IMG/VR virus record: IMGVR_UViG_2718218304_000001 | Span: 32,001 to 96,000 of that record | Strand: one strand, 5' to 3' | DNA: 64,000 nucleotides | DNA from: a virus | Lineage: Duplodnaviria; Heunggongvirae; Uroviricota; Caudoviricetes | Shown here: piece after piece, positions 3,709 through 64,000 of the stretch | Layout: every line of letters begins with the position of its first letter | How positions within the stretch are numbered: the first letter of the stretch is position 1 | Notes under the pieces: generated by a model | The model's input: only the letters and a program-made list of their open reading frames with translations | The model's database searches: none | Told to the model about the DNA's origin: nothing | Position numbers and translations under genes: made by a program

Positions 3709-3957
3709 TCAGCATTTTACCACCCCGTTCGGAAACAACTCATTCGCCGTAGTTGATATAACCTCCCAATTAACGCCGACATCAGCGTTATGGCATTGTC
3801 TGATTTTTTGCATCACCTGTACGCATTGTTCATCAGTGAGATCTGTCCTTACTTCAGCAATATCTTCTTTGTGCCACATAACCATGAGTAAGGGTTCGTC
3901 TTCTGGATAGTTTTTCAGTTTCTCGATGATTTCTTTTGCTGTTCCAAACATCTTCAT
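3709..3957 (-). CDS. hypothetical acidic protein
   Basis: ORF track; GGAG before the ATG; motif-1 copy immediately upstream (3961..3980). Confidence 0.4.
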   Translation of the reverse strand: MKMFGTAKEIIEKLKNYPEDEPLLMVMWHKEDIAEVRTDLTDEQCVQVMQKIRQCHNADVGVNWEVISTTANELFPNGVVKC

Positions 3958-4059
3958 CTCCTAAACAATTTGTTTTCTTATATGACTTATTATCTCAATC
4001 AACAAAAGGTAGAAAACAAATTGTTTTAGAGTTTGTTAAAGTCAGAAGGGGTTGTGTCT

Positions 4060-4090
4060 ATATGAAAATGCCCAGCGTATTGCTGGGCAT
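4060..4090 (-). terminator. metG terminator hairpin (GCCCAGCGTATTGCTGGGC)
   Basis: Inverted repeat followed by a U-rich tract on the minus strand, directly after the metG stop. Confidence 0.55.
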
Positions 4091-4110
4091 TGTGAAGAAT
4101 GGTTGCTTAA

Positions 4111-6144
4111 TTACTTAACCTGGTGGCCAGGTTTAGCACCGACATCCGGGCTTAACAGGAAGATATCTTTCCCGCCAGGGCCAGCAGCCATCACCATGCC
4201 TTCGGAGATACCGAAGCGCATTTTACGCGGAGCCAGGTTAGCCACCATAATGGTGTGACGACCAATCAGTGCCTGTGGGTCTGGATAAGCAGAACGAATG
4301 CCGGAGAAGACATTGCGTTTTTCACCGCCGAGATCCAGCGTCAGGCGTAGCAGTTTGTCAGAACCTTCTACAAACTCTGCGTTTTCAATCAGCGCCACGC
4401 GCAGGTCAACTTTGGCGAAGTCGTCAAAGGTGATAGTTTCCTGAATCGGGTCGTCAGCCAGTGGGCCAGTTACCGGTGCGGCTGTGGCTTTCACTTCTTC
4501 TTTGGATGCTTCCACCAGTGCTTCAACCTGCTTCATATCGATGCGGTTATACAGTGCCTTGAACGGATTCACTTTATGGCCCAGCAGCGGTTGCTGGATA
4601 CCATCCCAGGTCAGTTCTGTATTCAGGAATGCTTCTGCACGTTCAGTCAGTTTCGGCAGTACCGGCTTCAAGTACGTCATCAGCACGCGGAACAGGTTAA
4701 TGCCCATAGAGCAAATCGCCTGCAGATCGGCATCGCGTCCTTCCTGCTTCGCCACCACCCACGGAGCCTGTTCATCGACATAGCGGTTAGCCAGGTCAGC
4801 CAATGCCATGATTTCACGGATAGCTTTACCAAATTCGCGGCTTTCCCATGCTTCACCAATCACTTCAGCAGCATCAGTGAAGGTTTTATACAGTTGCGGG
4901 TCAGCCAGTTCGCCTGCCAGCACACCGTCAAAACGCTTATTGATAAAGCCCGCGTTACGGGACGCCAGGTTAACCACTTTGTTAACGATATCGGCATTCA
5001 CACGCTGAACGAAATCCTCCAGGTTGAGATCGATATCATCAATACGCGAAGAGAGTTTCGCAGTGTAGTAGTAACGCAGGCTGTCAGCGTCAAAATGATT
5101 CAGCCAGGTGCTGGCTTTAATAAAGGTGCCGCGAGACTTGGACATCTTCGCGCCGTTCACCGTCACATAGCCATGAACAAACAGGTTGGTCGGCTTGCGG
5201 AAGTTGCTGCCTTCCAGCATGGCAGGCCAGAACAGGCTGTGGAAGTAAACAATATCTTTACCGATGAAGTGGTACAGCTCGGCGGTGGAGTCTTTCTTCC
5301 AGTATTCATCGAAGCTGGTGGTATCGCCGCGCTTGTCGCACAGATTCTTGAAGGAACCCATGTAGCCAATCGGCGCGTCCAGCCAGACGTAGAAATATTT
5401 GCCCGGCGCGTTCGGAATTTCAAAACCGAAGTAAGGCGCATCGCGGGATATATCCCACTGTTGCAGGCCGGATTCAAACCATTCCTGCATTTTGTTCGCC
5501 ACCTGCTCCTGCAACGCGCCGCTGCGGGTCCATGCCTGCAACATTTCGCTGAAAGAAGGTAGATCAAAGAAGAAGTGTTCGGAATCACGCATTACCGGGG
5601 TAGCGCCAGAAACCACCGATTTCGGCTCGATCAATTCAGTCGGGCTATATGTTGCGCCGCAGACTTCACAGTTATCGCCGTATTGATCTGGCGCTTTACA
5701 TTTCGGGCAGGTGCCTTTTACAAAACGATCCGGCAGGAACATGCCTTTTTCCGGGTCGTACAACTGAGAGATAGTGCGGTTTTTAATAAAACCGTTCTCT
5801 TTCAGGCGAGTATAGATAAGCTCAGACAACTGACGGTTCTCTTCGCTGTGCGTCGAGTGATAGTTGTCATAGCTGATGTTAAAGCCTGCGAAATCAGTCT
5901 GGTGTTCCTGACTCATTTCGCCAATCATCTGCTCCGGTGTGATACCAAGCTGCTGTGCTTTCAGCATGATCGGCGTACCGTGGGCATCGTCGGCACAGAT
6001 GAAATTAACCTCGTGGCCGCGCATTCGCTGGTAACGAACCCAGACATCAGCCTGGATGTGCTCCAGCATATGGCCGAGGTGGATTGAGCCGTTAGCGTAC
6101 GGCAGCGCGCACGTCACCAGAATTTTCTTCGCGACTTGGGTCAT
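4111..6144 (-). CDS. metG: methionyl-tRNA synthetase
   Basis: Translation starting [29 protein letters not shown] matches E. coli MetG over its full 677 aa as I recall it; the ORF-track start at 6273 is an upstream in-frame extension. Confidence 0.95.
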
Positions 6145-30172: not shown

Positions 30173-30742
30173 TCAAATGAGAGACTTAAGAACATCGCGC
30201 ACCTGGCGGAACTGATCTGTTTGCATACCGGTATGGATGGCAGCCACCGCATCAGCCAAATGTTCGTTTTTGTTCACGAGAACATCCTGTCCAGATTGCT
30301 TACGACGCAGCCACGGTGCTTTAGGGTGTTTTTTCGTAGCCCACTGGATAATCTCTTCTTTCGATGTAGTAAGTTTATTGCCGACAAAATGCTTGATTTC
30401 GTTTGGAGTAACCTGGATCAATGGCTTATCCACACACGCAAGTACACCGATACAAATACCGTAAGACGTCTGCGAACGAGAGTTTTGGCTCCCAACCGGT
30501 AGCTCACAAAAAACCATATTTGCCTTATCAATGATTGGCTTCGCAACACGCCATATTTCACTGGCGCGGCGCAGATCGTCACTGTTCACACGAACGGTCT
30601 TTTTGTTACTCCCCGCTTTAGTCTCAACAAGAGTAAGGCCGTGAATCTCAAGTTCGTCCGTTTCAAGGTCTAAAGTGCCCACAGCAAGCCCAAAGTTGCT
30701 CATAGAGGGATCAACACCAACTACGCTGATTTTTTTACTCAT
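30173..30742 (-). CDS. RuvC-like Holliday junction resolvase
   Basis: N-terminal VVGVDPS acidic motif and RNase-H-like pattern. Confidence 0.5.
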   Translation of the reverse strand: MSKKISVVGVDPSMSNFGLAVGTLDLETDELEIHGLTLVETKAGSNKKTVRVNSDDLRRASEIWRVAKPIIDKANMVFCELPVGSQNSRSQTSYGICIGVLACVDKPLIQVTPNEIKHFVGNKLTTSKEEIIQWATKKHPKAPWLRRKQSGQDVLVNKNEHLADAVAAIHTGMQTDQFRQVRDVLKSLI

Positions 30743-30751
30743 ATAGTCTCC

Positions 30752-31495
30752 TTACCATGTTCCCCATATAGGGTTTTCCAATAATCTCGCCTCCAACGAA
30801 TTGGCTACTATTGCCGTTTGCAACGTTGGTTGGGGATAGTTTGCAAAGTCTGAATACTCATTTTCCTGCGTGACACGTTTATCTACGGCATGTTTAACGC
30901 CACTTGCTATGAAATGACGCATGATGCCCAACAGCCTCCGACTGTCTGCACTATCGTTTGCTAAAACATGAGGGAGCTGAAGTTCGATTTCTACCATTTC
31001 TCCATACTTACCAACAAACTGTAGTTTGTCCGCACTGTACTTTTTATCCCTCCTTTGGATAAGGAAACCAGTAAAAGCATCACCTGGCGATGCCAAACTA
31101 TCCACCCGCTTATTGGCAAGTCGAATAAGGTTCGTGAAAGCCATACAGAGATGCGCATCCATTGCCCCAAAGAACCCTTCGCTATCAATGTTAAGATCTT
31201 CAGTTTCATGGGTTGCGATAAACCCAGGCCCGACGTTGGGGAGATATCCCCCCTCAACAAAAGGATTAATCAGGATCGGCGCAATACATCCAGGTGGTAG
31301 TGATTTCAAACTTTGCATCAATGGTGTCTCGGATATTAGACCAAGCAACGCGGCGAATTGCACTCCGTCAATATTGTTGCTGCCCCACAGAATACGTGGA
31401 GCCGCACCATTGGAGGTATGCCCATTGATCAGTTTTATCGACTGCATCACTGCAAATACCTGCAAAAACTGCGAGCGGCTTAATTTAAACGACAT
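30752..31495 (-). CDS. hypothetical protein
   Basis: ORF track only; within the recombination gene block. Confidence 0.3.
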   Translation of the reverse strand: MSFKLSRSQFLQVFAVMQSIKLINGHTSNGAAPRILWGSNNIDGVQFAALLGLISETPLMQSLKSLPPGCIAPILINPFVEGGYLPNVGPGFIATHETEDLNIDSEGFFGAMDAHLCMAFTNLIRLANKRVDSLASPGDAFTGFLIQRRDKKYSADKLQFVGKYGEMVEIELQLPHVLANDSADSRRLLGIMRHFIASGVKHAVDKRVTQENEYSDFANYPQPTLQTAIVANSLEARLLENPIWGTW

Positions 31496-33401
31496 AGCTG
31501 CGCCCCTCTTTAACTTCCAGCGTAATAGTTTCCCGGAACCACGACTTCATCTCTTTATGGGAGATAATCAGCACAGTACCTCGCTCGCGAGCTTTGGACT
31601 CCAGAATACCCATGAGGCGTTCAAGACCGGCTGTATCGAGTGCATCGTCAATTTCGTCGCCGATAAACAAATCGATGTTTTTACTCGCCCGGTTACTAAC
31701 CAGATCCTGCAATGCCAAAGAACACGCAATGCGAACCTTCCGCTTCTCACCACCAGAGAGGGTTTGGAACGACTTACTTGAACCTTTCTTCTGCACACTA
31801 ATGTTGAATTTGTCGCGATACTCACCTTTTTTAGTGACATCCATCGTCGACCACTCAGCAGTAATATTCCCGTCAGACAACGTATTGAGATACTCGGCAG
31901 TGCGTGTATTCAGGAAAGGCGTAACAGACGTCAAAATATGAGAACGCACCCCGGCAGGAGAGTAGACCTGACGAGCTTTTTCCAATAGCAACGTTTGTTC
32001 CTGAATAGCCTTCAACTCATCTTTTAAGGACTTGAAGGTAGACTTACTGGATACCAGGTTATCTTCGTGTCTGGCGATAAGAGCAATAAACGGATTAATC
32101 TCTTTTGATATACGATCGACCTCAGTACGAGCACGAGTCACAAGAGACTCAATAGCAACAACCTCCTTCTCACGATGACGCAAAGATGAGAGTTGTTTCG
32201 TAAGCTCTTCAATCCGGGCAATGATAGCCGTTACATCAGGTGTCGTTTTAACAAGGGCAGACTCAATGCTTAACGCTTTCTCAAGATTCGTTTTGTGTTT
32301 AGCCATTGCCTCTGCAAGTGTCTTCGCCTGACCAATTTCCTGACGTGCTTGTTCAATGAAATTCTCCTTCACCGTTGATAGATCTTCTTCGCAGTAGGCT
32401 TTGCCACAAGTAGGGCATGGTGATCCCACTTTAGTACCAACCTCTTCTGCTTTGGTCTTAAAATTACGCGCGCGGTTCATTGCATCAGCCTGACTATTTT
32501 CTGTAGCTTTGATGCTTGCCCGAATATCAGTTATCGCACCACGAACTTTGAGCAACTTGGCGTCATGTTCTTCTTTTGAGGCTAACTTTTTGCGCTCACT
32601 TTCGATTGCCTTCTCGGTATCACGTATCTGTTCGGGAAGAGTGCGGATCTCAAGTTCAACTTCCGTTAACTCAACTTCGGCACTGGCCAGCCCAGCCAGG
32701 GCATCGTCATAACGTTTAGAACGCTCTTGCTCCCATGATTCAGAGGAGGCTTTCGCTGACTCAATTTCTGACTGTGTTGCCTCAATGGTCGAGATTGTCG
32801 ACTCCAATTTGGTTTTAACCACATCCATACGTGCGGCAGCTGCATTAGCTCGCTCACGAGCAATAGCGTAGGCGCGTGTCAGTCTGTCAACGCCAGCGGC
32901 TTCTTCTACGATGGTTTTGAGGTTTTTGTCGGACATTCCAGGTAAATCTGGCATAGCTTCTTGGCTCGCATAGATGGAAGCCATGAAAACCTCTTTAGAT
33001 GCACCGATCAGACGCTCGACGAACTCCTGCGTCAGCGCATCTTTGCCTTTCGTCATATCGCCATCTTCACCACGAACGATAAGACGATTTTTGAACTCTT
33101 TGTGTTTACGGTGACGAATGATTGCGTATCTCTTGCCTTCATCCTCGATGGTTACTGCAACACGACAGTTCTTTTCATGGTCGGTAGACAACACATCGTC
33201 ACCCTTCACACCATGAGCTGTTTCGCCATAAAGACACCACATCAGGCTATTCATTAGAGTTGACTTTCCAGAGCCATTACTTGATGCGGAACTATCATCA
33301 CTATTAACACCCTGAATGAGCACTAAACCACGCTGATCTAACTCGACCTCCGCGCTGGCGATAGCCATAAAATTCTCAACCTGGAGCTTTAAAAACTTCA
33401 T
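31485..33401 (-). CDS. SbcC/Rad50-like ATPase (recombination nuclease subunit)
   Basis: N-terminal Walker A GVNSDDSSASSNGSGKST, long coiled-coil middle, C-terminal LSGGE signature. Confidence 0.8.
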   Translation of the reverse strand: MKFLKLQVENFMAIASAEVELDQRGLVLIQGVNSDDSSASSNGSGKSTLMNSLMWCLYGETAHGVKGDDVLSTDHEKNCRVAVTIEDEGKRYAIIRHRKHKEFKNRLIVRGEDGDMTKGKDALTQEFVERLIGASKEVFMASIYASQEAMPDLPGMSDKNLKTIVEEAAGVDRLTRAYAIARERANAAAARMDVVKTKLESTISTIEATQSEIESAKASSESWEQERSKRYDDALAGLASAEVELTEVELEIRTLPEQIRDTEKAIESERKKLASKEEHDAKLLKVRGAITDIRASIKATENSQADAMNRARNFKTKAEEVGTKVGSPCPTCGKAYCEEDLSTVKENFIEQARQEIGQAKTLAEAMAKHKTNLEKALSIESALVKTTPDVTAIIARIEELTKQLSSLRHREKEVVAIESLVTRARTEVDRISKEINPFIALIARHEDNLVSSKSTFKSLKDELKAIQEQTLLLEKARQVYSPAGVRSHILTSVTPFLNTRTAEYLNTLSDGNITAEWSTMDVTKKGEYRDKFNISVQKKGSSKSFQTLSGGEKRKVRIACSLALQDLVSNRASKNIDLFIGDEIDDALDTAGLERLMGILESKARERGTVLIISHKEMKSWFRETITLEVKEGRSYVV

Positions 33402-33630
33402 ATAACACCTCTGATACCGTGTGTTAGCTTTTGGCCTTCTTTCAATCTGAACTCCGTATGCGCCGGGAAGGATCTGCGCCTCAATACGCCTTTTCTTGTT
33501 AACCTTCCAAGATAAAACGCTACGGGATTTCCTTGTGGCGGGTAGGGCTTGTGAAACATCACCGTCTGGCCTCGTTCAAGTCTTTTCATCGTGATGGCAA
33601 AGTCTCGAAAGCTCCCATAACGACTTTGCT

Positions 33631-34716
33631 TCACACAGCCTCCGAACTCTCCGCTTCGGTGAGGATTTCCTGACACAAAATATCCAATTTGCTCAGATCA
33701 AATCCGCCGTCAGTATCGTGGACAATCTTGCAATAAGCAGATACCGACTCTCCCAGGCTATCGATTTTGCTGGTTTCAGTTGTGCTGGCTGTCCCTTCCA
33801 TCATTGATGACTTACGGATGAAGTTGCACACGACACCTTTTGCACCCATTGTTTTGAGGATGTTCTGGTACTTAATGCCTTCTTCATCGTTCTCAATTAC
33901 GGCGCGGAAACGCACGTAGTTGCCGCGAATTTGGTCATCAGCAACATCATCTTCCAGGTTAATGAATTTAGGCGCACTGGTTTCGTAGTGACTGAAACTG
34001 CCGTCCGGGTTTACGATCATGTAGCCAGCCAGAGATCCAACATCTCCCCAATTTTGATGAGTCAGTGCACCGACACTGATAACTCCAGGAATGACCTCTT
34101 TGTGGTTGTGGTAATGCCCACTAAGCACGAGACGAAAGCCGATATCCTTTAACTCCTGCGCATCGATACCGACGTCAGGCATTGTTGGAATGGCTTTGTT
34201 AATGGATGTATGGATAACAACGTCATGATTATCACCTTCTACGCTCTTACGTAATGCTTTCAGATCGCTGATAAGCTCCGCATGATTGTTACGCCAGCTA
34301 ATCAGGTGGACAGTCACATCACCAATTTTTATTGAGTGTGGGCGCTTGCCACATACGATTACCACGCCGATAGAACTCAGCGATGCTGCTGCGTTGGCGC
34401 TATATACTGAATCGTTGGTTTCAAGATCGTGATTACCGGCCAGCATTACTACTGTCAGATCAAGCTCGTTGATAATCCACTTGTACGTTTCAGTTACGTA
34501 ATGCAAAACAGAAGGGGACACAGTTCCTCGGACGTGAAATGTATCACCGGCAACCAACATGTACTTACAACCGGCCTTCTTCATGGCGATGGCTGCTTCT
34601 TTCGTTGCTTCCAACTGTATTTCAAGTCTGGAGTTAAGCCCCTCAGCGTTCGTCGTGGAGAACGCATCCCATTTGTGGTAGTGGCAGTCAGAAATGACGC
34701 CGTATGGCAAAGTCAT
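33631..34716 (-). CDS. SbcD/Mre11-like nuclease (calcineurin-like phosphoesterase)
   Basis: Metallophosphatase motifs (GDTFH, GNHD) at the N-terminus; upstream of the SbcC-like gene. Confidence 0.75.
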   Translation of the reverse strand: MTLPYGVISDCHYHKWDAFSTTNAEGLNSRLEIQLEATKEAAIAMKKAGCKYMLVAGDTFHVRGTVSPSVLHYVTETYKWIINELDLTVVMLAGNHDLETNDSVYSANAAASLSSIGVVIVCGKRPHSIKIGDVTVHLISWRNNHAELISDLKALRKSVEGDNHDVVIHTSINKAIPTMPDVGIDAQELKDIGFRLVLSGHYHNHKEVIPGVISVGALTHQNWGDVGSLAGYMIVNPDGSFSHYETSAPKFINLEDDVADDQIRGNYVRFRAVIENDEEGIKYQNILKTMGAKGVVCNFIRKSSMMEGTASTTETSKIDSLGESVSAYCKIVHDTDGGFDLSKLDILCQEILTEAESSEAV

Positions 34717-37823: not shown

Positions 37824-38158
37824 TATCCAACCTCCTTGCAGTCATCGAAAAGGTAGCTTTGCTGAGAAGCGTGAACGCCATAGAAGCCCTTGTATTTGTT
37901 GTATACGAAGTGGTCTTCTCCGACGCCGGTTAATTTGCCATTACGGTTTGTGAGATATGGGGATGACAATACTCGATCGTCACGCACAACATAGAACTGG
38001 TCGCCGCTGTCTACGACCATCGCTCCATATGGTGCTTTTATGACGTCGGTAAGAGCGCCATTCTTAACGTCGGCTACAGACATTTCACACTGATAAACAG
38101 TGGTGTCGGCCACAACGATCGAGGAAAGGAACAACAGAGCGAATGGGATGGCCTTCAT
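37823..38158 (-). CDS. secreted hypothetical protein (signal peptide)
   Basis: N-terminus MKAIPFALLFLSSIVVA. Confidence 0.4.
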   Translation of the reverse strand: MKAIPFALLFLSSIVVADTTVYQCEMSVADVKNGALTDVIKAPYGAMVVDSGDQFYVVRDDRVLSSPYLTNRNGKLTGVGEDHFVYNKYKGFYGVHASQQSYLFDDCKEVG

Positions 38159-38334
38159 GCTGCCACCTCTTTGATTACATCAAATGCTGAATTAAATACG
38201 AGCACGATAGCCAAAGCGTTTATGACTACGTCGTTCACCGGGGAAAAGACTTTACGAATGACACCGGTGAAAATGCAGTCGATGACAAAAGCTATTGAAA
38301 CGATGAGTAACAAGTATTCAATAAAAATCTTCAT
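38158..38334 (-). CDS. small hydrophobic membrane protein (58 aa; below the ORF-track cutoff)
   Basis: Translated by hand: MKIFIEYLLLIVSIAFVIDCIF...; ATGA overlap with the downstream gene. Confidence 0.3.
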
Positions 38335-38373
38335 GATAGGTAGATACTAACTTATATAAATTTTACTATAAAC

Positions 38374-38649
38374 TCACTCAAAAGTGCTGATGCTTAAAAT
38401 ACGCTCAAGATGTGCGGCATCTTCATCACTGATTTGTTGAGTCTCTTCTACGTACCAACAGTTGCCGTTATGCCAACAAACACCATCATCATCAACTATC
38501 ACTGAAACAGCGTCATGACCTGTATATTCAACGAGAATACGCTGGATCAGCGCGTCAGTTTCTTCGTCGTTAAGGCCATCAGCTTTGACCATAAAAAGCG
38601 GAAACACGTCATAGACAGTGCTGGTAACGATTCGAACTAAAACTCTCAT
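38374..38649 (-). CDS. hypothetical protein
   Basis: ORF track only. Confidence 0.3.
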   Translation of the reverse strand: MRVLVRIVTSTVYDVFPLFMVKADGLNDEETDALIQRILVEYTGHDAVSVIVDDDGVCWHNGNCWYVEETQQISDEDAAHLERILSISTFE

Positions 38650-38704
38650 GTGTTTTTCCTTTTGTGGTTAGTGTTTACTTATTTTGTTAGTTATGAATAG
38701 GCGA

Positions 38705-39130
38705 TCAATCTTCTTGTTTAGGGAAAAACTGTTCAATAACTCTGTCAACGGCTGTGTCTATATGGAGTAGATGCCACACAACCATATCTTTGCTTCCCAT
38801 GCCTTGTGTGAATATCACGTCATACTTACGCCATGCGCAGTGGAACCAATATGCTGAGTCATCAATTGGTAAATCCTCTCCCGCCTCTTTGAAGTATTTC
38901 AGCAGCATTGCCTGCTCTGCCGTTGGCGTTGGACCTATTTCCTGAGCGTACATACGGATGAATCGCTGCCAGTCTGTCTCGTCGGGGGTTGGATCTGGTG
39001 GGGTCATTTCTGCGATAGCGTTTCGTAGCTGATGCGCCCAATCAGGTTCAGGAAAGCCTTTTGCTACTTCATCATCAATAACATCCAGAGCCACGTTTGC
39101 GGCATCGTAGAGTTTCTTAATAGCTGTCAT
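38705..39130 (-). CDS. hypothetical protein
   Basis: ORF track; motif-1 and AAGGAT immediately upstream. Confidence 0.35.
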   Translation of the reverse strand: MTAIKKLYDAANVALDVIDDEVAKGFPEPDWAHQLRNAIAEMTPPDPTPDETDWQRFIRMYAQEIGPTPTAEQAMLLKYFKEAGEDLPIDDSAYWFHCAWRKYDVIFTQGMGSKDMVVWHLLHIDTAVDRVIEQFFPKQED

Positions 39131-39209
39131 GTTTTCTTATCCTTTTAAACAAATTGTTTTCTTAATAAGATAATTGCGATAAAAAAGGCGTCCTGTGGAC
39201 GCCTTGTGT

Positions 39210-41549
39210 TTACTCTTCTACTGACTCGGTGGGGTTGTCTTTTGCTCTTCGGTCGTCGATTGCCTGCAAAGCCGCAATGATTTCAGCCAGTGGCTTCTCC
39301 CGATACATCTCGACGATCTGCGATTTGGTGTATTTCTTGTCACCAATTTCAACTCGCCCGCTGGCGTTCTTTGGCAGGTATCCTTCTTCCAGCATGTACT
39401 CGACGAGCGATTCGATAACGTCGAGGCCACGAGTAGGATCGAAGTAGAATTTCCAGGTGCATTTGCCATACGGTGGTGCAACTTTGTTTTTGATGCATTC
39501 TGCGCCTACGTCCTGGCCGATCTTCTCTTTACCATCCTTCATCACCGATGCACCAAGACGGATACGTACAGAAGCGTAGAACTTCGGTGAATCTCCACCT
39601 GGCGACGTAGTAGGGTCGCCAAACATTACACCGATTTTTGTGCGAACCTGATTCAAGAAGATGATGCAGGCGTTGTATTTGCGTGCCCACAAAGCCAGAG
39701 TAGGGAAGTTCGCACTCGTCGCACGAGCCAGTGCCGTATTGTCGTTCATGTTTAGCTGATCTTTGTCTTTGGCAGTGCCTTCAGCCATCTTTTCGAACTT
39801 CTCGGCTTTGGAGTTCGGAACCATAGACGCAAGAGAGTCAGCCACGATACAGATAGGTGCTGATTCGGGGATAAGCTCTTCATCACGAACCAATTTAAGT
39901 ATTGTGCCGATCAACTCTACAGAGTCTTCGAAGGTATCTGGCTGCTTGTATACCCACTGACCGTCGTCTTCGTCGGCGTTCAGTCCGTTCGCTACCGCCA
40001 GACCAACGTCGAAACTGTTTTCGTGGTCAAGGAATACGGCCAGACCATCCTGTTTTTGTGCTGACACCATCGCAGCCGTCGCGAGGAATGTGTTGTGGCT
40101 GATAATCCCGTTAGACCAGAAAGAGTGTGTTTCCGGCATCGCTACGTCGAACGTTGGTGCTTCACCTTCCTCAATAGCCACGACTTCGTCGTAGAACAAG
40201 TTAGAGTCAATTACCGCTGCCAGTTGTGCAAACAGATGCTCGTTAAAACGATTCTTTCTGCCAATGAAGGAGACATAGATTTCTCGCAGTTTGTCTATTC
40301 CGACACGATCGCCGCGGCCAATAACGTGATCTACCAGAACGTAGTCTTTACGAGAGGTCTTGGTGAGTGACTCGTAGAGTGATTTCACTAAGCCGCTGAT
40401 GTGCGGAACGTAGCCTAAATAAGTGCGGTCAAAACTAATGTCCCGTTTGGTTGCCACTGCTAAACGAGCCGGAGACTCGAACCCAATCGTTGACAGGAAA
40501 AGGTCGTAGTTAGAGCCACTGAATGACAGCCGGTAATATATGTTTTTATAACCTGCGACGTGTTTTTCAGAGATAGTTGACGTAATCCCCAGATTCAGGA
40601 GCATGAGGCGAATTTGCTGTAGCAGCAGCCCACTCGCGCTCACAACCTCAATGCAGCGACCATCATTGACGTGGCATTCCAGCTCAAAGTAGCCGCGAAG
40701 GAATGCAATTTGAGCCTCGCTATTGGCGCGACGCACACTCAACGGAACCTGCTTGCCAGCAGCTTTCTCATACTCCAGACCATATTCTTTAAAAAGCAGC
40801 GAACGCACCTCTTTGCTAAACAGCACATGGTCTTCCGAGCCGTTATGTTTTCTCGTAACTGGCATCTTGTCTGATACCAGCGAAATGAGGCGGTAGTACT
40901 CATCCTTGATGAAAGGATCTGTGTTAGAAAAATTCACTGAATTTTCAGAGGCCACGTATCCGTCAGCAATTAAATAGCCCATCAGTTTTGCGATATTGGC
41001 ATCCAGGTGCTGATCGCCGAATTGATGTGTGCCAACCATTGAAGGAATCGTGTCGCCTACACTGATTTTTTCAGCATGTCGCCAGACGACATTACCTAAG
41101 TCGTCAACCACACGGATTGGGTGACGGAACGTAGCCTCGATATAACCGCCTGATGCCAGCTTAATACGCTTGAATTTGCGACGGTTGTTCCATGTCAGGT
41201 GTGAGGTCTTCTCTATCACGCCATTTTCATTGATGAGTCCAACGTTATGCTCTACATCGCGAGTAGTGCATGTCGCTTTGTACCCTTCAATCTCAAACAA
41301 CTCTTTCACTGTTACCATTCCACGCTCCGTCAGCAGCATGGTGTCTGCGGTAACACATTTCCCCGCGCTTGGTGGCCCGAATACTTCTACGATACGACCA
41401 CATGGGAAACCGCCATCGTAACGACCGGAAATAGCTTTGTTTAACGGAGGAAAGCCTGTGTCAATCCAATGAGTTACTTTCTGAATTTCGTCGTTGCTAC
41501 CGATTTTCTTTTTCAGAGCAAGTGCCAGTGCGGATTTTCCTTTTGCCAT
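39210..41549 (-). CDS. RecA/UvsX-like recombinase interrupted by an intein
   Basis: Exteins total ~357 aa and read GRIVEVFGPPSAGK|T...FLNQVRTKIGVMFGDPTTSPGGDSPKFYASVRIRLG, paralleling RecA (GRIVEIYGPESSGKTT...[32 protein letters not shown]). Confidence 0.8.
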   Translation of the reverse strand: MAKGKSALALALKKKIGSNDEIQKVTHWIDTGFPPLNKAISGRYDGGFPCGRIVEVFGPPSAGKCVTADTMLLTERGMVTVKELFEIEGYKATCTTRDVEHNVGLINENGVIEKTSHLTWNNRRKFKRIKLASGGYIEATFRHPIRVVDDLGNVVWRHAEKISVGDTIPSMVGTHQFGDQHLDANIAKLMGYLIADGYVASENSVNFSNTDPFIKDEYYRLISLVSDKMPVTRKHNGSEDHVLFSKEVRSLLFKEYGLEYEKAAGKQVPLSVRRANSEAQIAFLRGYFELECHVNDGRCIEVVSASGLLLQQIRLMLLNLGITSTISEKHVAGYKNIYYRLSFSGSNYDLFLSTIGFESPARLAVATKRDISFDRTYLGYVPHISGLVKSLYESLTKTSRKDYVLVDHVIGRGDRVGIDKLREIYVSFIGRKNRFNEHLFAQLAAVIDSNLFYDEVVAIEEGEAPTFDVAMPETHSFWSNGIISHNTFLATAAMVSAQKQDGLAVFLDHENSFDVGLAVANGLNADEDDGQWVYKQPDTFEDSVELIGTILKLVRDEELIPESAPICIVADSLASMVPNSKAEKFEKMAEGTAKDKDQLNMNDNTALARATSANFPTLALWARKYNACIIFLNQVRTKIGVMFGDPTTSPGGDSPKFYASVRIRLGASVMKDGKEKIGQDVGAECIKNKVAPPYGKCTWKFYFDPTRGLDVIESLVEYMLEEGYLPKNASGRVEIGDKKYTKSQIVEMYREKPLAEIIAALQAIDDRRAKDNPTESVEE
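40092..41357 (-). mobile_element. intein (422 aa) with LAGLIDADG homing endonuclease, inserted in the P-loop of the RecA-like gene
   Basis: Starts with Cys right after GPPSAGK, ends ...IISHN followed by Thr; internal LMGYLIADGYV and FLRGYFELECHV blocks. Confidence 0.75.
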
Positions 41550-56549: not shown

Positions 56550-56636
56550 TGGCGGAGAGTAATGGAATCGAACCATCATCGCTTGCGCAATGGGACGGTT
56601 TTCAAGACCGCTTGAGCACCATGCTCCCTACTCTCC
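56550..56636 (-). tRNA. tRNA-Ser (anticodon UGA), long variable arm
   Basis: Hand-folded: acceptor GGAGAGT/ACTCTCC, anticodon loop CUUGAAA, T-loop TTCGATT, encoded CCA; D-arm is atypical. Confidence 0.5.
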
Positions 56637-56956
56637 AGCTATTGTGATGGTCGGTGCTGAACTCCGACACAGGGTTGTAGCAAGCCCCGCAAAGCGCGCA
56701 CTACTGTAGTTGCGGCACATCAGCCTGTGCATTCATCACAACGGTAAGATCACTACCTTTCGACCAGTCATTGTGCACATGAACGACGATTAACCGTAAT
56801 GATCTTATCGTTGTGTTGTGAAGCCAGATGCTTATCTTCTGGTTGCTTCAAAGAGCTGCACTTCCTCACAACGGTAAGAGCACTGGTCTGACTCTATCGA
56901 TTTACGGGCTTGTGGGTCAGTATCGCCGATTCGCCCAATGCTCTTACCTGTTGTGT

Positions 56957-57032
56957 TGGTGCCGGTTAACGGGATCGAACCGCTGACATCCTGCTTACAA
57001 GGCAGACGCTCTACCAACTGAGCTAAACCGGC
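56957..57032 (-). tRNA. tRNA-Thr (anticodon UGU)
   Basis: Hand-folded: acceptor GCCGGTT/AACCGGC, D-arm GCTCAGTTGGTAGAGC, anticodon loop CUUGUAA, T-loop TTCGATC, CCA. Confidence 0.7.
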
Positions 57033-57036
57033 AATT

Positions 57037-57123
57037 TGGTGGGGAGTGATGGAGTCGAACCACCCGAGTCGCAATGACAGTAGATTTACAGTCTACCCCG
57101 CTGCCCCTACGGACTAACTCCCC
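57037..57123 (-). tRNA. tRNA-Tyr (anticodon GUA), long variable arm
   Basis: Hand-folded: acceptor GGGGAGT/ACTCCCC, anticodon loop CUGUAAA, T-loop TTCGACT, CCA. Confidence 0.6.
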
Positions 57124-57128
57124 TAAAT

Positions 57129-57203
57129 TGGCGATGGTGGGTGGATTCGAACCACCGACCAGTTGGTTAACAGCCAACTGCTCTACCGCTGAGCTACACC
57201 ATC
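57129..57203 (-). tRNA. tRNA-Asn (anticodon GUU)
   Basis: Hand-folded: acceptor GATGGTG/CACCATC, D-arm GCTCAGCGGTAGAGC, anticodon loop CUGUUAA, T-loop TTCGAAT, CCA. Confidence 0.7.
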
Positions 57204-57981
57204 AATTCAGCACTGCCAGTATTTATTACTCAACAGTGCCAATCGCGACGGTTTAGTTTCTGCCAGGAAACGCACCGCTACTTGCACTTTTCGTTAGTGC
57301 CAGACGCTTTCGACTTCGCTCAATAGTAGAAGGCAAAATCTTTAAGTAGATGATGTTTCTGAGGACAGCACCTACTTTGTAATTTATACAATGTGATGTA
57401 TGGAATCATTTGTTGTGAAAACAGGCACCAATGGCAACAGTGGTTAAACCTACACAACAATCCTGTCTTCACAACGTTGAGGCCACTACTCCGATTGAAT
57501 GTTTGCCCAACATGTTACATATCAACGCTCGCCGGTATCTCTGTGAATAGAACCTTAGAATTGATAAAAATGTAATGGCCTCAACGTTGTGTGCTGGCTA
57601 ACCATACCAGCCGGGCTACGTCGCCGCTTTTTAACCCAGTATAAACGACATAATTGAACAAAATGACGTAACAGGATGGGCGGTCAGTGGCTAAGAATCC
57701 GGGAGTCATATGGAGTTGAAAATATACCAACCGCCCATTCTGTTACTTCATCGGAGGGAACATGAATGTTCCCTCCTGCGTTCTGCAATCACACTCGCTC
57801 AGTGTGTCCCATTTCGGTAACGAGGCTGGAAACTGACCTCGCTGGTGTTTGGCTTATTAGGCTACTGCCAGATAGACTTCTTCGTTTGCACTTGTATTTA
57901 AGTTCAAACAGTCGCGTCTCAACGAAAACAAAGTCATCTTATACATAAAAGATAAGTAAGTAAATACTTATCACCATGTTT

Positions 57982-58272
57982 TTATTCGGTTGTGACTTTT
58001 TTGATCAAGGCCACTCTACGACTAGGTGTTCTTGTGATGGTGGCAGTGAATCGTTTCGCTTGGATAGTAATGGTTTCGTTCTCCTTAAGTTGCCCGTAGC
58101 GAGTTTCCACCAGGGTGCCAAGACGCCACAGACCATCATCGATACGTTTATGACTGGCAAATTTAATCAGCAGCAGTTTTACGACTAACTGACCTACGTA
58201 AAAGGCGAATGCGACTCCGGCCGCTAAGAAATAGGTGGCCAACCACCAGTCCCAAGAAGTTAAATTGCTCAT
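57982..58272 (-). CDS. membrane-anchored hypothetical protein
   Basis: N-terminal hydrophobic helix (WWLATYFLAAGVAFAFYVGQLVV). Confidence 0.35.
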   Translation of the reverse strand: MSNLTSWDWWLATYFLAAGVAFAFYVGQLVVKLLLIKFASHKRIDDGLWRLGTLVETRYGQLKENETITIQAKRFTATITRTPSRRVALIKKVTTE

Positions 58273-58417
58273 TTTCTAACCTTTGTTTCATGAACTACCC
58301 GATACACACGCTTTCCGATGCACAGTGTTTTGGTTTTAAGTTCCTGCTTAATTAAATCACGACAGATGCCGAAGCCGATAAGGAAGCCACCCATAAAAGC
58401 TAATGAGATGTATGGAA

Positions 58418-58633
58418 TCATTTTAACGCTCCTGATTCTACTAATTGCTGTAGCAATACTTTCCCTTTATCAGTTAACTGGTAGTTGGCCGAACACCACG
58501 TTTCAGAAACGTTTGCAACCAACCCTAACCGCTCTAACTTAGCTCGCGTTTTAGGCTTCCAGTACTCAGGGAACTCCGGCCACTTACTTATTTCATGAAG
58601 CGTTTCTTTCTCCCGTTTACTTAATACGATCAT
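58418..58633 (-). CDS. hypothetical small protein
   Basis: ORF track; stop/start overlap with the ligase gene. Confidence 0.3.
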   Translation of the reverse strand: MIVLSKREKETLHEISKWPEFPEYWKPKTRAKLERLGLVANVSETWCSANYQLTDKGKVLLQQLVESGALK

Positions 58634-59952
58634 TCTTTATCTCCGATTCGATCTTCGGTATCGCGTAAGCAACGCGGCCATTTCAGTCGTGGGTGGCGTA
58701 AGCTGCCATCCGGCGTTTTCTCGTGACAATGAACCTCGACAATACGACCACGGTACTTCTCTTTGTTGTTCCAGATCTCGTCCAGATATTTATGCTTAAT
58801 GCCGCTCGCACGAACAATCACACCGTTTTCAAGGCGAATAACAATTTTTCCAAGCGTGTTGGCAAAACCAGAGTCCGGGTCGCCAGGCTCAAAGTCGATA
58901 ATTTCACCATCTTCTGAATCTTCGTCTTTTAACTTCCACCAGCTGCGGGTACGTTTAAACTCGTAAACAGAGTTCGGATCTTTGCCCATCTCCCCTTCTT
59001 CGTTATCGTCCAGGCGTTTCATGAAGCGTTCGATGAAGTCTTCGTGGCTATGGATGATGTAGAACGGATGAAGGTGGATATCTTGCGCATAATCTTCCAC
59101 GCAAGTGTTGCGGAACAACGCCACCAGCATAGCCAGGCGCTCTTTCAGCTTCATACCGGTCTTCAGGTACTCTTTGCTTTTTGCTTGAGCACGCCACTCC
59201 GGTAAGAAGAAATCGAAAATGTGGTAAACGGCACCAATGGCTTTCACGTTCTTCTTACGAAGCGCCGACACTGACTGGTTGAATGTACCTGCAGTGCCCT
59301 CTCCATCGAAGAAGATGTGATTGAAGCCGGAGAGTCTGCCCCGCTCCAGCATGGCTGGTTTAAGGTGATCGAGTGACGTAATCGGATTGCCGGTGCGCGT
59401 CAGGAAATTGACCTCACCCTCGTCCACGATGACTTCGCAGATAACCCGGAGACCATCGAGTTTGAGACTGCCGATCATTGGCCACTTGGCCTTTGGATTT
59501 GGTTTAAATGGGTATTTGTCGCCTTTCTCCTTGTACGGAGACGCCAGCTGTACCTCAAACTTCGGAATTGGGTTTTTGAACACCTTGTTGCACAGGCTGA
59601 TGCCGACACCGGCTTTCGGATCTTTCAGCAGGAAGCGACGAAACACGTCCTGCCCGTCAGCGCACATCGAGGCAACGAGTGATTCGACAGCAGCAATAGC
59701 GATGTTCCCGGTCAGTTCGCGCGCTGCCAGCTTCTCCAGCAGATCTACTACCTTCTGGTCGCTGGGTACGGAAGTATCGAGTGGCTCGGCCACTTTGTAC
59801 TTCTTCACACCGAATCGAATGAATGGATTGAGCATTAGCGAGACCATGCTCTGTTCAAATTCATCCAGATTGGCCAGCGCCTCTTTCTTGGCGTTGGTTC
59901 CCATCGTTTTAATAGCATCCAGCTTGTGCTTTAGGGCGATCAGTTTTTCCAT
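58630..59952 (-). CDS. ATP-dependent DNA ligase
   Basis: Adenylation motif I KLDGLR (SLKLDGLRV) in a 440-aa protein. Confidence 0.8.
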   Translation of the reverse strand: MEKLIALKHKLDAIKTMGTNAKKEALANLDEFEQSMVSLMLNPFIRFGVKKYKVAEPLDTSVPSDQKVVDLLEKLAARELTGNIAIAAVESLVASMCADGQDVFRRFLLKDPKAGVGISLCNKVFKNPIPKFEVQLASPYKEKGDKYPFKPNPKAKWPMIGSLKLDGLRVICEVIVDEGEVNFLTRTGNPITSLDHLKPAMLERGRLSGFNHIFFDGEGTAGTFNQSVSALRKKNVKAIGAVYHIFDFFLPEWRAQAKSKEYLKTGMKLKERLAMLVALFRNTCVEDYAQDIHLHPFYIIHSHEDFIERFMKRLDDNEEGEMGKDPNSVYEFKRTRSWWKLKDEDSEDGEIIDFEPGDPDSGFANTLGKIVIRLENGVIVRASGIKHKYLDEIWNNKEKYRGRIVEVHCHEKTPDGSLRHPRLKWPRCLRDTEDRIGDKE

Positions 59953-59958
59953 TAGTGT

Positions 59959-60462
59959 TTAACCTCCATCGGTCGCTCGGGAGTTTTCATGTGTTTTCTT
60001 TGGTTGCTTCTTCAATGAGTGCCGCGTACACGTCAGTGATCGACGCCAGTGAATCGGTGGGCTTGGTTTCGGATTTAGCAGGTTCTGTTTTCTTCGTGCG
60101 ATGAATAAGACTGTCAATTGTCGCGGAGTTTCGCTTCCGGGGGGCGTTCTGGCATGGTCGTTTTGCTCTTCCACTTCTTTGATAAGTGAAGACATATCGA
60201 TGAAGTAGAGCTGTTCGCCTTTGCGGATCTCTTCGACCATCATTTTCAGTGCCTGACATTTACCAGCAGCAATAGCCGCAGCACAGGACTGGAACGATGT
60301 AGCCGGGAGACGTTTTTCTTTATAGGCGAGGATCGTGTGTTGGCAGACTGTATAGCTGCAATGAGCCTCATGGCCGTTGAGCTTCACTTCCGGGCAGCGC
60401 AGCGAATAACCGTTGTTTCCGGAGATAGACGGGATTTTCGACAAATCTGTTCTTGTGGACAT
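59959..60462 (-). pseudogene. Cys/His-rich hypothetical gene with a frame break at a C6 homopolymer
   Basis: The N-terminal ~105 aa look protein-like, then the frame turns into a Pro/Arg-rich tail; a +1 shift at the G6 run 60139..60144 (C6 on the coding strand) joins a well-formed C-terminus ending at 59987. Confidence 0.35.
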
Positions 60463-60542
60463 GCTTCTAACCGTAATCTTGTACTTACTTATTAATCGCA
60501 GTTTAAAGAAGCCCCACGAGGGGCTAAATGTTTTATCGAGGC

Positions 60543-61355
60543 TTACCAGGTCGCCCAGCCAGTCATTTTGTCCTGAGCAGCTTCGAACCGGTATGGGTCC
60601 AGTAAATCGTTGGCATGGTGGACGGCGTAGGATTTGGCTTCTTGTTTAATCATGGGTAATTCGTTGGCCAGACGAGCCACTTGCCCTGCAAAACTGGCGA
60701 GTACTCCGTCACATGCCTGACCCGCGTCGACAATGATGCGCACCAGGTCTAAGTCGCTGCGGCACATATCGCAGATAATGCCGTATTCCACCTCACGAAT
60801 GCGCTCAACGGCTTTTTTGATATCGCCACTGACCACCAATTCCAGCAAACCAGGTGGAGTTGTCAGATCTGTTACGCGCTCGGTAACTTCAGACTGTTCG
60901 ACAATACTCAGGAACGCCGCGATGGACGGGTCATCCGCCACACCAGCTCTGACTTTGAGCGTGCGAAGAGTTGCGTCGACAATATCCTCAAACCGTTCAC
61001 CTTCATCGCACACAGTCTGATTGGTGTAGACAGTCTGATTAGTGTAGACAATGCGACCGTCGTACCATGCACCGGTACTCACTTCGACCGTTGCGTCTTT
61101 CATCTCGCGAGAGAACGCCACAAGTGCCGCGCGTTTCTGCTTAACACCTGGCAACTCCGGGGACTCTCCAAAACGAACCCAGACCTGCATGTATTTCGAG
61201 CCTTCCGAAAGAGGTGCGGCGCTCACGGACGTGGCGATATGCTCCAGCGCAGTTTGGATCGCCTCGTCGATAATCTTCTGGCGCTCTTCTGTATCAATTT
61301 CTACGCCGGATTTGTCGATGATGTCGCAGACTAACTTCTGAAATTCTTCTTTCAT
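60543..61355 (-). CDS. hypothetical protein containing an 18-bp tandem duplication (VYTNQT x2)
   Basis: ORF track; tandem repeat read at 61013..61048. Confidence 0.4.
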   Translation of the reverse strand: MKEEFQKLVCDIIDKSGVEIDTEERQKIIDEAIQTALEHIATSVSAAPLSEGSKYMQVWVRFGESPELPGVKQKRAALVAFSREMKDATVEVSTGAWYDGRIVYTNQTVYTNQTVCDEGERFEDIVDATLRTLKVRAGVADDPSIAAFLSIVEQSEVTERVTDLTTPPGLLELVVSGDIKKAVERIREVEYGIICDMCRSDLDLVRIIVDAGQACDGVLASFAGQVARLANELPMIKQEAKSYAVHHANDLLDPYRFEAAQDKMTGWATW

Positions 61356-61449
61356 AGCAACTCCTGACTAACAGATGAAAGTATTCTTTCAGAAAAATAA
61401 GTAAGTATCTACTTATTATATCGGGCGCAATAGTCTGCTATACGAAGAA

Positions 61450-61830
61450 GCCAGGCGTAAAAACCACTCGGATGCACATCCAGCACCCGACAAAGCAGTC
61501 GGACAGGCCAGCAATGGGTGTTGTCACGGATAAAGGCGTACCTCAGTCGGACAGCTTTGCGAAGTACGCCGCGCTTTTTTTAATATGTCCCGTTCGTCGG
61601 TAACCCGCTTCAGCTCTTTCTGGAGACGGCGGATCTCGGCCTGAGCATCTGACTGTTCTTTATTAGTGGAAGAATCCGGACCGTACTTCTTTATCCAGGA
61701 GTAAAGGCTGTGGGTGGTGATATCGAGACGTGTTGCAACGCTGGCAACAGAATAACCGCGATCAACAACCTGTTTGACTGCTTCAATTTTTAAACTCTTC
61801 GGGATAACGCTTACCGCTCATGGGCACCTC
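61450..61830 (-). mobile_element. IS3-family insertion sequence remnant (orfA frameshifted, orfB cut after ~40 codons)
   Basis: Minus strand encodes MSGKRYPEEFK then a frame break at an A5 run, continuing IEAVKQVVDRGYSVASVATRL...RRLQKELKRVTDERDILKK; an A7G slippery-type heptamer; orfB-like RYAFIRDNTHCWPVRLLCRVLDVHPSGFYAW ends near 61445. Confidence 0.55.
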
Positions 61831-62027
61831 TCTTTAAGTCATCTTAAATGACTCTGAGGTGTCTATTAAACCTGTGGCGATTCAATACACTAAATCAATA
61901 AGTTGGTAGCATTACCGATGAATTTGACAATTTAAACTAAAAAATAAACTACGAAGTAATTTTAATGTTATGTTTCCATATACATGGTATACTGTCCCCA
62001 TGAATATCCAGACAGTTGGTTACAGCG

Positions 62028-63013
62028 CCTGCTGGGCAAAAAAACCATGGAAAACGAGCTGCTGAAAGAAGCCGTTGAATATGGCCGACAAAAAAAGTGG
62101 ATAGCGCACGTGCCCTTGTTGCCGGAGGATGGTGAATGAGCCTTGTCAGTCGTTGCCTCCGGGTCTCACGTGCGCAACTGCATGCCATGGCCCGTCGGTC
62201 GAAGGGCTGGCAGGATCGTCGGTGCAAGCGCAAGCCTGATGATACTGAAGCGCTGGCTCGTATCCATACCGTTATCGACGATCTGCCCACCTATGGTTAT
62301 CGTCGTGTATGGGTACTGCTGCGCAGACAATCAGAAACTGACGACATGGCGGTGATCAATGCCAAACGCGTATACCGCATCATGCGTCAGAATGCGCTGC
62401 TGCTTGAGCGTAAACCGGCAATACCGCCCTCGAAGCGGGCGCATAGAGGGAAAGTGGCCGTTGGAGAAAGTAACCAGCGGTGGTGCTCCGACGGCTTCGG
62501 GTTCAGCTGTGATAACGGTGAAAAACTGCGGATCACGTTCGCGCTGGACTGTTGCGAGCGCGAGGCACTTCACTGGGCAGCAAGTACCGGTGGATATGAC
62601 AGTGAAACCGTGCAGGACGTCATGCTGGGTGCAGTAGAGCGTCGCTTCGGTAACAGGCTGCCGACATCCCCCGTTGAGTGGCTGACAGACAACGGTTCAG
62701 CCTACCGTTCTCATCAGACGCGTCAGTTCGCCAGAATGGTAGGACTGGAGCCAAAACATACGGCGGTACGTAGTCCAGAAAGCAACGGAATGGCGGAGAG
62801 CTTCGTGAAAACGATGAAGCGCGACTACATCAGTATCATGCCAAAACCTGACGGGTTAACAGCGGCAAAGAACCTTGCGGAGGCCTTCGAACATTACAAC
62901 GAATGGCATCCGCACAGTGCACTGGGATATCGTTCTCCACGGGAATATCTGCGGCGGCGAACCAGTAATGGGTTAAGCGATAAAAAGTGTCTGGAAATAT
63001 AGGGGCCAATCCA
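62028..63013 (+). mobile_element. IS2-like insertion sequence, 5'-truncated
   Basis: Only the last ~36 codons of the orfA equivalent remain ([24 protein letters not shown]...); full orfB; right end TGGATTGGCCCCTATATTTCCAGACA matches the IS2 terminal repeat as I recall it. Confidence 0.75.
62136..63002 (+). CDS. insD: IS2-type transposase OrfB (DDE)
   Basis: 288 aa, highly similar to IS2 InsD from memory (NQRWCSDGF...LTDNGS...[15 protein letters not shown]). Confidence 0.8.
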
Positions 63014-63143
63014 CATGGAAATGTTTTTGATTAAAATAAAAAATATTCTTTTATATTGCTCTATCATTTTTATTTTTAGTAATTTATTAGCAAGAGATTG
63101 CGATCTCTTTTTTAGTTAAAGCAAATTAGTTAAGGATTAGTCT

Positions 63144-63695
63144 ATGAAACGTTCAATTATTGCGGCTACTGTATTAGCATCTCTTTTTATGAGCGCAGGA
63201 TCATTTGCAGCAGAAGGGAGTACAGAGGGTCAGTTAACTATTAACGGTAAAGTCACAGAGACTACATGTCAGTTCCTGAGCGGTAGTGAGAATACAACAA
63301 TTTCGATGAGCGAAATTGGTCGTGATCAATTTGAAAATGTAGAAGTTGGCTCCCCCGTTACCACTTATTCAAATACAACATCTTTACCACTAAAAGTTAA
63401 ATGTCCCGGAGAAAAAAAACCAAGAATTACCTTCTCCAGCACCCAATTTGAAGGAACGGGTTCAAATGTTACTCGCAATACTGGTGATGCTAGCGGTGTC
63501 GGTTTCGCTGTTTTTTTGGGGAAAGGTACTGATTCTAGCAAGCGGATTTCTGGTAATAGTCCTATTGAGTTAACATCAGCTACTAATAATGGTGAATATG
63601 AGTTGCATTTTACGGCGCAATACGCAAAAGCAGCTGATGATGTGAGTACTGGCGAAGTTAGTTCTGCGATAACAATGACCGTTGTAACAGATTAA
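63144..63695 (+). CDS. yehD: fimbrial major subunit (YehD-like, chaperone-usher pilin)
   Basis: Signal peptide MKRSIIAATVLASLFMSAGSFA and a pilin-like C-terminus; position matches the yeh operon next to mrp-metG in E. coli K-12. Confidence 0.6.
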   Translation: MKRSIIAATVLASLFMSAGSFAAEGSTEGQLTINGKVTETTCQFLSGSENTTISMSEIGRDQFENVEVGSPVTTYSNTTSLPLKVKCPGEKKPRITFSSTQFEGTGSNVTRNTGDASGVGFAVFLGKGTDSSKRISGNSPIELTSATNNGEYELHFTAQYAKAADDVSTGEVSSAITMTVVTD

Positions 63696-63750
63696 CATGA
63701 TGTTTATCGGCGGCTTCGGTCGCCGATTTTCAATCGCAAGGATTGTTATC

Positions 63751-64000
63751 ATGAAAAAATTAATAGCCTTCTTACTAACCGTAACGGTCCCATCTGCGTG
63801 GGGCGGTGTCTATATTTACGGCACTCGCGTTATTTATCCGGAACAGAAAAAAGAGATTGCAGTTCAGTTAATGAATGAAGGTGAGCGTAGTGCTCTTGTT
63901 CAGTCGTGGATTGATGATGGCGATGCCAGCCTTCCTCCGGAAAAGATTAGTGTACCTTTTGTGCTGACTCCACCGGTAGTTCATGTTAGTAAGGGTGAAG
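63751..64000 (+). CDS. yehC: periplasmic fimbrial chaperone (PapD-like, YehC-like), 3'-partial at window end
   Basis: MKKLIAFLLTVTVPSAWGGVYIYGTRVIYPEQKKEIAVQLMNEG is a PapD-like N-terminus; runs off the window. Confidence 0.6.
   Translation, partial: MKKLIAFLLTVTVPSAWGGVYIYGTRVIYPEQKKEIAVQLMNEGERSALVQSWIDDGDASLPPEKISVPFVLTPPVVHVSKGE

Follow-up and report, generated by a model that had tools for sequence, protein, structure and literature searches.

A heritable one-base deletion in a cytosine run truncates, and probably inactivates, a small gene beside the DNA ligase of an SSU5-like phage-plasmid

The frame break upstream of the ligase gene in the stretch of DNA analysed here (64,000 nucleotides, referred to as the window) is, with a probability of about 0.85, a genuine inherited one-base deletion produced by slippage in the C7 run of a small accessory gene of the replication module. 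We observed the deletion at this position as a heritable allele that accounts for about 18% of the contigs with an uninterrupted run, and indels were seen to recur at the run. The gene is probably a C-terminally truncated and inactivated allele, i.e., a pseudogene; its function would have been lost, and the gene appears to be dispensable for plasmid maintenance. The retained N-terminal domain could keep activity, and the frequency of the null allele (about 18%) might mean that it is neutral or even favored rather than decaying. The frameshifted status of the gene was already known, as RefSeq flags the copies with a C6 run. For annotation, the ORF at 59959..60462 is best described as a frameshifted allele of the SSU5_043 family; it should not be entered as a new 167-aa protein, as a recoding site, or as an assembly error.

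The frame break and the interrupted gene

The window is an SSU5-like phage-plasmid of Escherichia coli, a group described in PMC7969092. Its neighboring genes encode a DnaB-like helicase, a primase, and the ATP-dependent ligase, together with a tRNA cluster, a CobT-like protein, and DnaE; further neighbors are a homing endonuclease inside a RecA-like gene and tail fiber genes. The features around the frame break are as follows.

58630..59952, minus strand: ATP-dependent DNA ligase, 440 aa (Pfam PF01068, E value of 1.1e-11; phrog_114, E value of 8e-124)
59959..60462, minus strand: 167-aa ORF from the ORF listing, ending ...EEQNDHARTPPGSETPRQ...
59987..60259, minus strand: overlapping ORF from the ORF listing, C-terminal end ...IDSLIHRTKKTEPAKSETKPTDSLASITDVYAALIEEATKENT
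59987..60138, minus strand: displaced original frame: basic linker (variable) and C-terminal helix (conserved), ITDVYAALIEEATKENT
60139..60144, minus strand: C6 homopolymer (G6 on the plus strand), codons 107-108, Pro-Pro
60139..60462, minus strand: retained coding part, with the N-terminal domain (residues about 10-103)
60543..61355, minus strand: upstream neighbor, 270 aa, phrog_4248 (function unknown, E value of 5e-142)
62136..63002, with a frameshifted fragment near 61600..61940: remnants of IS3-family transposases
63144..63695: major subunit at the start of a fimbrial operon

The sequence-only reading had placed a frame break in a C6 homopolymer within a Cys/His-rich gene upstream of the ligase, and this description was borne out. 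The minus strand reads ...GAC CAT GCC AGA ACG CCC CCC GGA AGC GAA..., the ligase gene lies directly downstream, and five Cys and three His residues within the first 70 residues make the Cys/His-rich label a fair one. Relative to the C7 of intact relatives, the site of the one-base deletion is the C6 run at codons 107-108. The 167-aa ORF therefore consists of 108 authentic residues followed by 59 out-of-frame residues (GSETPRQLTV...SRATDGG), the part after the run being GSETPRQLTVLFIARRKQ...SRATDGG. The original frame past the run, which ends with a TGA stop at 59987..59989, is untranslated in the C6 allele; it is kept 3' of the run in all full-length homologs. As had been predicted, one extra C restores a well-formed C terminus, the insertion yielding a 158-aa protein that is identical to WP_185081212.1 of plasmid pYLPI6a. 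The C6 run by itself is unremarkable, three such runs being observed in the window versus about 10 expected. What goes beyond chance is that the conserved C terminus of the family lies in the other frame directly 3' of the run.

The repaired protein aligned over residues 1-158 of 158 with positions 1-154 of 155 of the phrog_5055 profile (E value of 1.7e-91) and partially with phrog_4558, both of which are PHROG families of unknown function. Its protein identity to SSU5_043 was 90.5%. No match to Pfam, NCBIfam, or PADLOC was found for the repaired protein or its distant homologs, and PDB sequence profiles gave no match at E values up to 10. A profile search of 1.84 billion cluster representatives recovered 190 relatives, mostly of 170-230 aa, and the profile matched distant members out to positions 150-154. 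An alignment of 88 family members showed no variation at C23, C40, C60, C69, or E78.

In the close homologs, a variable basic linker joins a conserved N-terminal domain to the C-terminal motif ITDVYAALIEExTKENT, which is conserved in 21 homologs and out of frame in the window; the peptide DVYAALIEEATK is part of this conserved C terminus. AlphaFold2 modeling from the 21 close sequences was poor (pLDDT of 48), whereas the model obtained from 88 diverse sequences was usable (pLDDT of 79). In this model the N-terminal domain is a beta-hairpin followed by four helices, with a pLDDT above 90 over residues 11-100. The frame break at residues 107-108 falls just past the last helix of this domain, so that the domain survives in the C6 allele and the basic linker and the C-terminal helix are lost. 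Since the shifted frame has no early stop, a 167-aa chimera can still be produced, its N-terminal domain being intact. Compared with phrog_5055, phrog_4558, and SSU5_043, the window copy differs in being frameshifted after residue 108 and in lacking the C-terminal helix.

Allele states in relatives and the history of the run

The 551 bases around the gene matched 46 E. coli plasmids and no chromosomes among the RefSeq complete genomes, as well as 256 PLSDB plasmids from Enterobacter, Escherichia, Salmonella, Yersinia, Citrobacter, and other hosts. Against Salmonella phage SSU5 the same 551 bases were 91.8% identical. Five of the 46 E. coli RefSeq plasmids matched the window exactly over 121 bases around the run, 31 were one base longer than the window at the run, and 10 carried a more divergent allele. 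When seven plasmids of the one-base-longer group were read directly, all seven had a 7-base form, either C7 or CTCCCCC; C7 was read in pYLPI6a, pTB212, C1 p1, pYUXYEH3934-1, and pRHB03-C12_2, and CTCCCCC was found at the site in S56 plasmid B and pQL57EC-2 (QL57EC). A C6 run was read directly in 7/7 complete plasmids, namely, pYPE3-114k, pYY76-1-1, p2017-01-4CC_1, pCUPF07B, and pYUYZPE244-1, together with pLAO59 (Laos) and the Enterobacter plasmid pTAir-3, both of which were reached via PLSDB. In the first five of these, the RefSeq annotation (PGAP) tags the identical sequence as "hypothetical protein, frameshifted." For the complete C6 plasmids, the recorded countries of origin are China, Viet Nam, Laos, and Thailand.

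An intact CDS of 477 nt and 158 aa was present in pYLPI6a, pTB212, C1 p1, S56 plasmid B, pQL57EC-2, pRHB03-C12_2, and SSU5; in SSU5 the 158-aa product is SSU5_043, and the site reads CTTACCC. The pYLPI6a gene differs from the window gene solely by one more C. In alignments with relatives the disruption occupied just one gap column within the C run, a length not divisible by three. Intact products were found on 183, 218, 223, and 356 contigs in a collection of 15 billion proteins (NCBI, ENA, and Logan), from which all contig counts given here were taken. The question raised earlier, whether homologs show the same short product, was answered positively for one sub-lineage only, most homologs being full length.

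The uninterrupted C7 run is considered derived because outgroups carry T at run position 2, and sequence comparison indicates that C6 in turn is derived from C7. Under the scheme that we propose, the run would have originated in an E. coli sub-lineage when a T was replaced by C (CTCCCCC to CCCCCCC, Leu107Pro). A single C would then have been lost on one haplotype, most likely by replication slippage in the C7 run, with strand slippage as the likely mutational origin, and the C6 allele would have spread, with recombination, among plasmids carrying a yehD-type fimbrial operon. The C6 carriers were observed on two downstream backbones, with the break inside the ligase gene at window 59038..59185. 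Upstream of this break all C6 carriers are nearly identical; downstream of it they fall into pYPE3/pCUPF07B/pQL57EC-like and pYY76-1/pLAO59/pYLPI6a-like backbones. Two backbones require either recombination or a second origin of C6, and recombination fits these heavily recombining elements, with the single origin of C6 resting on just two linked single nucleotide polymorphisms (SNPs). The C6 run together with T at window 60043 can serve as a lineage marker for fimbria-carrying SSU5-like phage-plasmids, which are often multidrug resistant. The complete plasmids bearing the C6 marker come from Asian livestock, food, and humans, with recorded origins in East and South-East Asia.

Indels were not confined to the C6 allele. 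The predicted C8 product (116 aa) was found on three contigs and the predicted C5 product (115 aa) on one. All three C8 contigs carry CCCCCCCC, and they fall on two different haplotypes. A CTCCCCC-to-CTCCCC deletion producing the same shifted frame was present in DRR317776, DRR317783, and SRR12298537; their haplotype is set apart by positions 60143, 60127, 60043, and 60040 and by another gene upstream. A further T+C4 allele in ERR13326640 was discounted as an independent event, the contig also having a split ligase gene and a split upstream gene and being probably a noisy assembly. The run is therefore a site of recurrent indels, and of the indel alleles only C6 has expanded.

Pairing with the ligase and the surrounding element

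In the window, 34 nt separate the original stop (59987..59989) from the downstream ligase ATG (59950..59952). The shifted ORF reads through the ligase Shine-Dalgarno sequence GGAGG (59963..59967) and ends with a TAA stop at 59959..59961. Ribosomes translating the C6 allele should thus terminate 6 nt short of the ATG, and no polar effect on the ligase is expected; in the C8 allele, translation would end 42 codons ahead of the normal stop. We speculate that nonpolarity on the ligase might help explain the tolerance of C6; hitch-hiking on successful resistance plasmids explains the frequency of C6 equally well.

The genomic context of distant homologs was obtained by tblastn against annotated phages. 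In Stenotrophomonas phage ANB28 the family member lies between the primase gene (upstream) and the ligase gene, the 455-aa downstream gene having been confirmed as a phrog_114 ligase. In Pseudomonas phage hairong (Nickievirus) it is downstream of the primase gene and directly upstream of a phrog_114 ATP-dependent ligase. The same pair of family member and ligase was present in ANB28, hairong, Cyrano, and pJN2-26, and in all four the stop codon either overlaps the start codon or lies within 4 nt of it. SSU5-like elements likewise have the family member directly upstream of the ligase. The pairs are located as follows.

59987..60462 with 58630..59952, both minus strand: window
3935-5900: locus L045
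4001-6028: locus L046
Loci L047 and L048: the same pair

The conserved pairing suggests a functional link to the ligase and makes the family a candidate ligase or replisome partner. This pairing, which extends across phages of Enterobacterales, Stenotrophomonas, and Pseudomonas, is a more interesting lead than the frame break itself.

Several further observations were made on the surroundings of the gene. A yehD-type chaperone-usher fimbrial operon and IS3 remnants are inserted beside the replication module at window 61400..64000, and this insertion is present in all C6 carriers. In dozens of SSU5-like E. coli plasmids, megablast similarity to the window breaks off exactly at 60042, about 18 codons before the stop of the gene, which places a mosaic junction inside the coding sequence; the conserved C-terminal helix moves together with the ligase module, and the rest of the gene lies in the variable module. 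In pTAir-3 (L006) an 82-nt tandem duplication at approximately window 60478 takes in the ribosome-binding region together with the first codons of the gene. Between the broken gene and the 270-aa phrog_4248 gene, which is annotated as encoding a hypothetical protein in all relatives, lies an 80-nt gap that contains a GC-rich hairpin (AGCCCCACGAGGGGCT) at window 60510..60525. This hairpin is terminator-like on the plus strand and lies just upstream of the ribosome-binding site of the broken gene on the minus strand.

Four tRNA genes are present at window 56550..57203 on the minus strand (Ser-TGA, Thr-TGT, Tyr-GTA, and Asn-GTT). The relatives have Asn only or Asn-Thr-Ser; the tRNA complement therefore varies, tRNA-Tyr being additional in the window and Ser lying at a different place. 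The mobile endonucleases in replication genes also differ among relatives: pCUPF07B has a dnaE gene split by an HNH endonuclease, and the recA-like region of relatives contains a LAGLIDADG homing endonuclease. The mobile-endonuclease loci are as follows.

30237-34549: pCUPF07B (locus L009)
38040-40379: locus L008

Alternative explanations and comparison with known systems

Homopolymers are classic sites of indel errors in long-read and pyrosequencing data, and the sequence-only reading had offered such an error, the true sequence being C7, as one account of the frame break. In its favor, the nearest intact allele, that of pYLPI6a, is separated from the window within the gene by the one C alone. 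However, C6 was read in 17 other assemblies, comprising the seven complete plasmids and 10 further assemblies examined at the DNA level; the latter had been fetched for their 167-aa product, and all were C6 in the same fimbrial-operon context. The exact 167-aa product was found on 92 contigs, compared with 183 and 218 (401) for two intact C7 products. The window also showed no sign of indel noise, with 26 mismatches and no gaps over 6,874 aligned bases (57127..64000) against pCUPF07B, and its flanks were closest to those of C6 carriers, with five mismatches and no gaps in 8 kb against ERR4221187. Furthermore, the window carries the complete haplotype linked to C6. When 40 sequences were aligned over 2.2 kb, all C6 copies had T at window 60043 and a non-A allele at 59572, and every C7 copy departed from this haplotype at 60043 or 59572. 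Among the sequences read directly, there were eight C6 runs on T60043, one C7 on T60043, and four C7 on C60043 (exact P of approximately 0.007, calculated by hand). Since random errors would not be confined to one haplotype, these data contradict a sequencing or assembly error, which we consider very improbable, and favor the inherited deletion.

The same haplotype data bear on slipped-strand phase variation, in which the C run would act as a contingency tract switching the full-length protein reversibly between C7 and C6 or C8. In its favor, length variants C5, C6, C7, and C8 all exist in the population, C8 arose on at least two haplotypes with an equivalent deletion (CTCCCCC to CTCCCC) on a third, and C6 makes up about 18% of contigs with an uninterrupted run. 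A switch is not supported, however: the tract state followed the flanking haplotype in 40/40 sequences, at few informative SNPs, and no C7 on the C6 haplotype and no revertant appeared among these 40 sequences, a small sample. One expanded allele dominates the length distribution rather than a spread of lengths, and the tract is short, with C7 in intact alleles and C6 in the window; known poly-G/C contingency loci usually have eight or more bases. Most of the wider family has no run, and 92%-identity alleles of Enterobacter, Salmonella, and Citrobacter encode Leu-Thr at the site. Phase variation is therefore unlikely. We likewise give a low probability to the proposal that the run is a recurrent mutational switch in a ligase partner and that C6 is a selected functional variant rather than a decaying pseudogene. 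If this were true, C6 would persist at about 18% by dropping the C-terminal helix while keeping coupled expression of the ligase, and would alter the ligase module during replication in the plasmid state; C8, with its earlier stop, would stay rare. Programmed recoding, by a -1 slip of the ribosome or RNA polymerase on CCC CCC G in C6 or by a +1 slip on CCC-CGG in intact alleles with both products being used, is the least credible of these proposals. tRNA-Pro on CCC-C is prone to frameshifting, GGA and CGG are rare codons in E. coli, and the out-of-frame tail stays open over 60 codons, to a point 6 nt short of the ligase ATG. Against this, most alleles are simply in frame and the slippery site is not conserved, the site being CTTACCC in SSU5, CTCCCCC in S56 and QL57EC, and other codons in Cyrano, pJN2-26, and ECL411. 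Only the E. coli allele group has the long open out-of-frame tail; the +1 frame closes after six codons in SSU5, Cyrano, and the Enterobacter plasmid ECL411, and an open +1 frame of such length occurred in 33% of codon-order shuffles. For the same two reasons, dual coding of the out-of-frame tail was rejected. A 3' RNA stimulator was sought in 111 nt (16 upstream to 89 downstream of the run), which folded no better than shuffles (minimum free energy of -11 kcal/mol, z = +0.68, with 150 of 200 shuffles folding as well). With relatives in frame without the slippery run, no 3' structure in this segment, and an alternative frame that is not conserved, the recoding suggestion is contradicted, and the inherited deletion remains the preferred reading. 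An IS1 "programmed frameshift" is annotated in relatives and is unrelated to the broken gene.

The C run shares features with several known systems. Like the contingency loci of Neisseria, Haemophilus, and Campylobacter, it is an in-gene C run with C5-C8 variants and recurring indels. Unlike them, the tract has 7 bases, arose recently by point mutation, is bound to a haplotype, and gave no evidence of reversion in the 40 sequences, and the gene is part of a phage replication module instead of having a surface or restriction function. As in dnaX, prfB, IS3 transposases, and tail chaperone G/GT, two overlapping frames meet at a slippery-looking run; the programmed frameshifts in those genes differ from the present case, which lacks a conserved slip site and a stimulator and in which the family as a whole does not need two frames. 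With the "frameshifted" pseudogenes of PGAP the C6 allele shares a one-base homopolymer indel relative to intact orthologs; it differs in its high frequency (about 18% of the uninterrupted-run group), in its spread onto two plasmid backbones, and in the lack of an early stop in the shifted frame.
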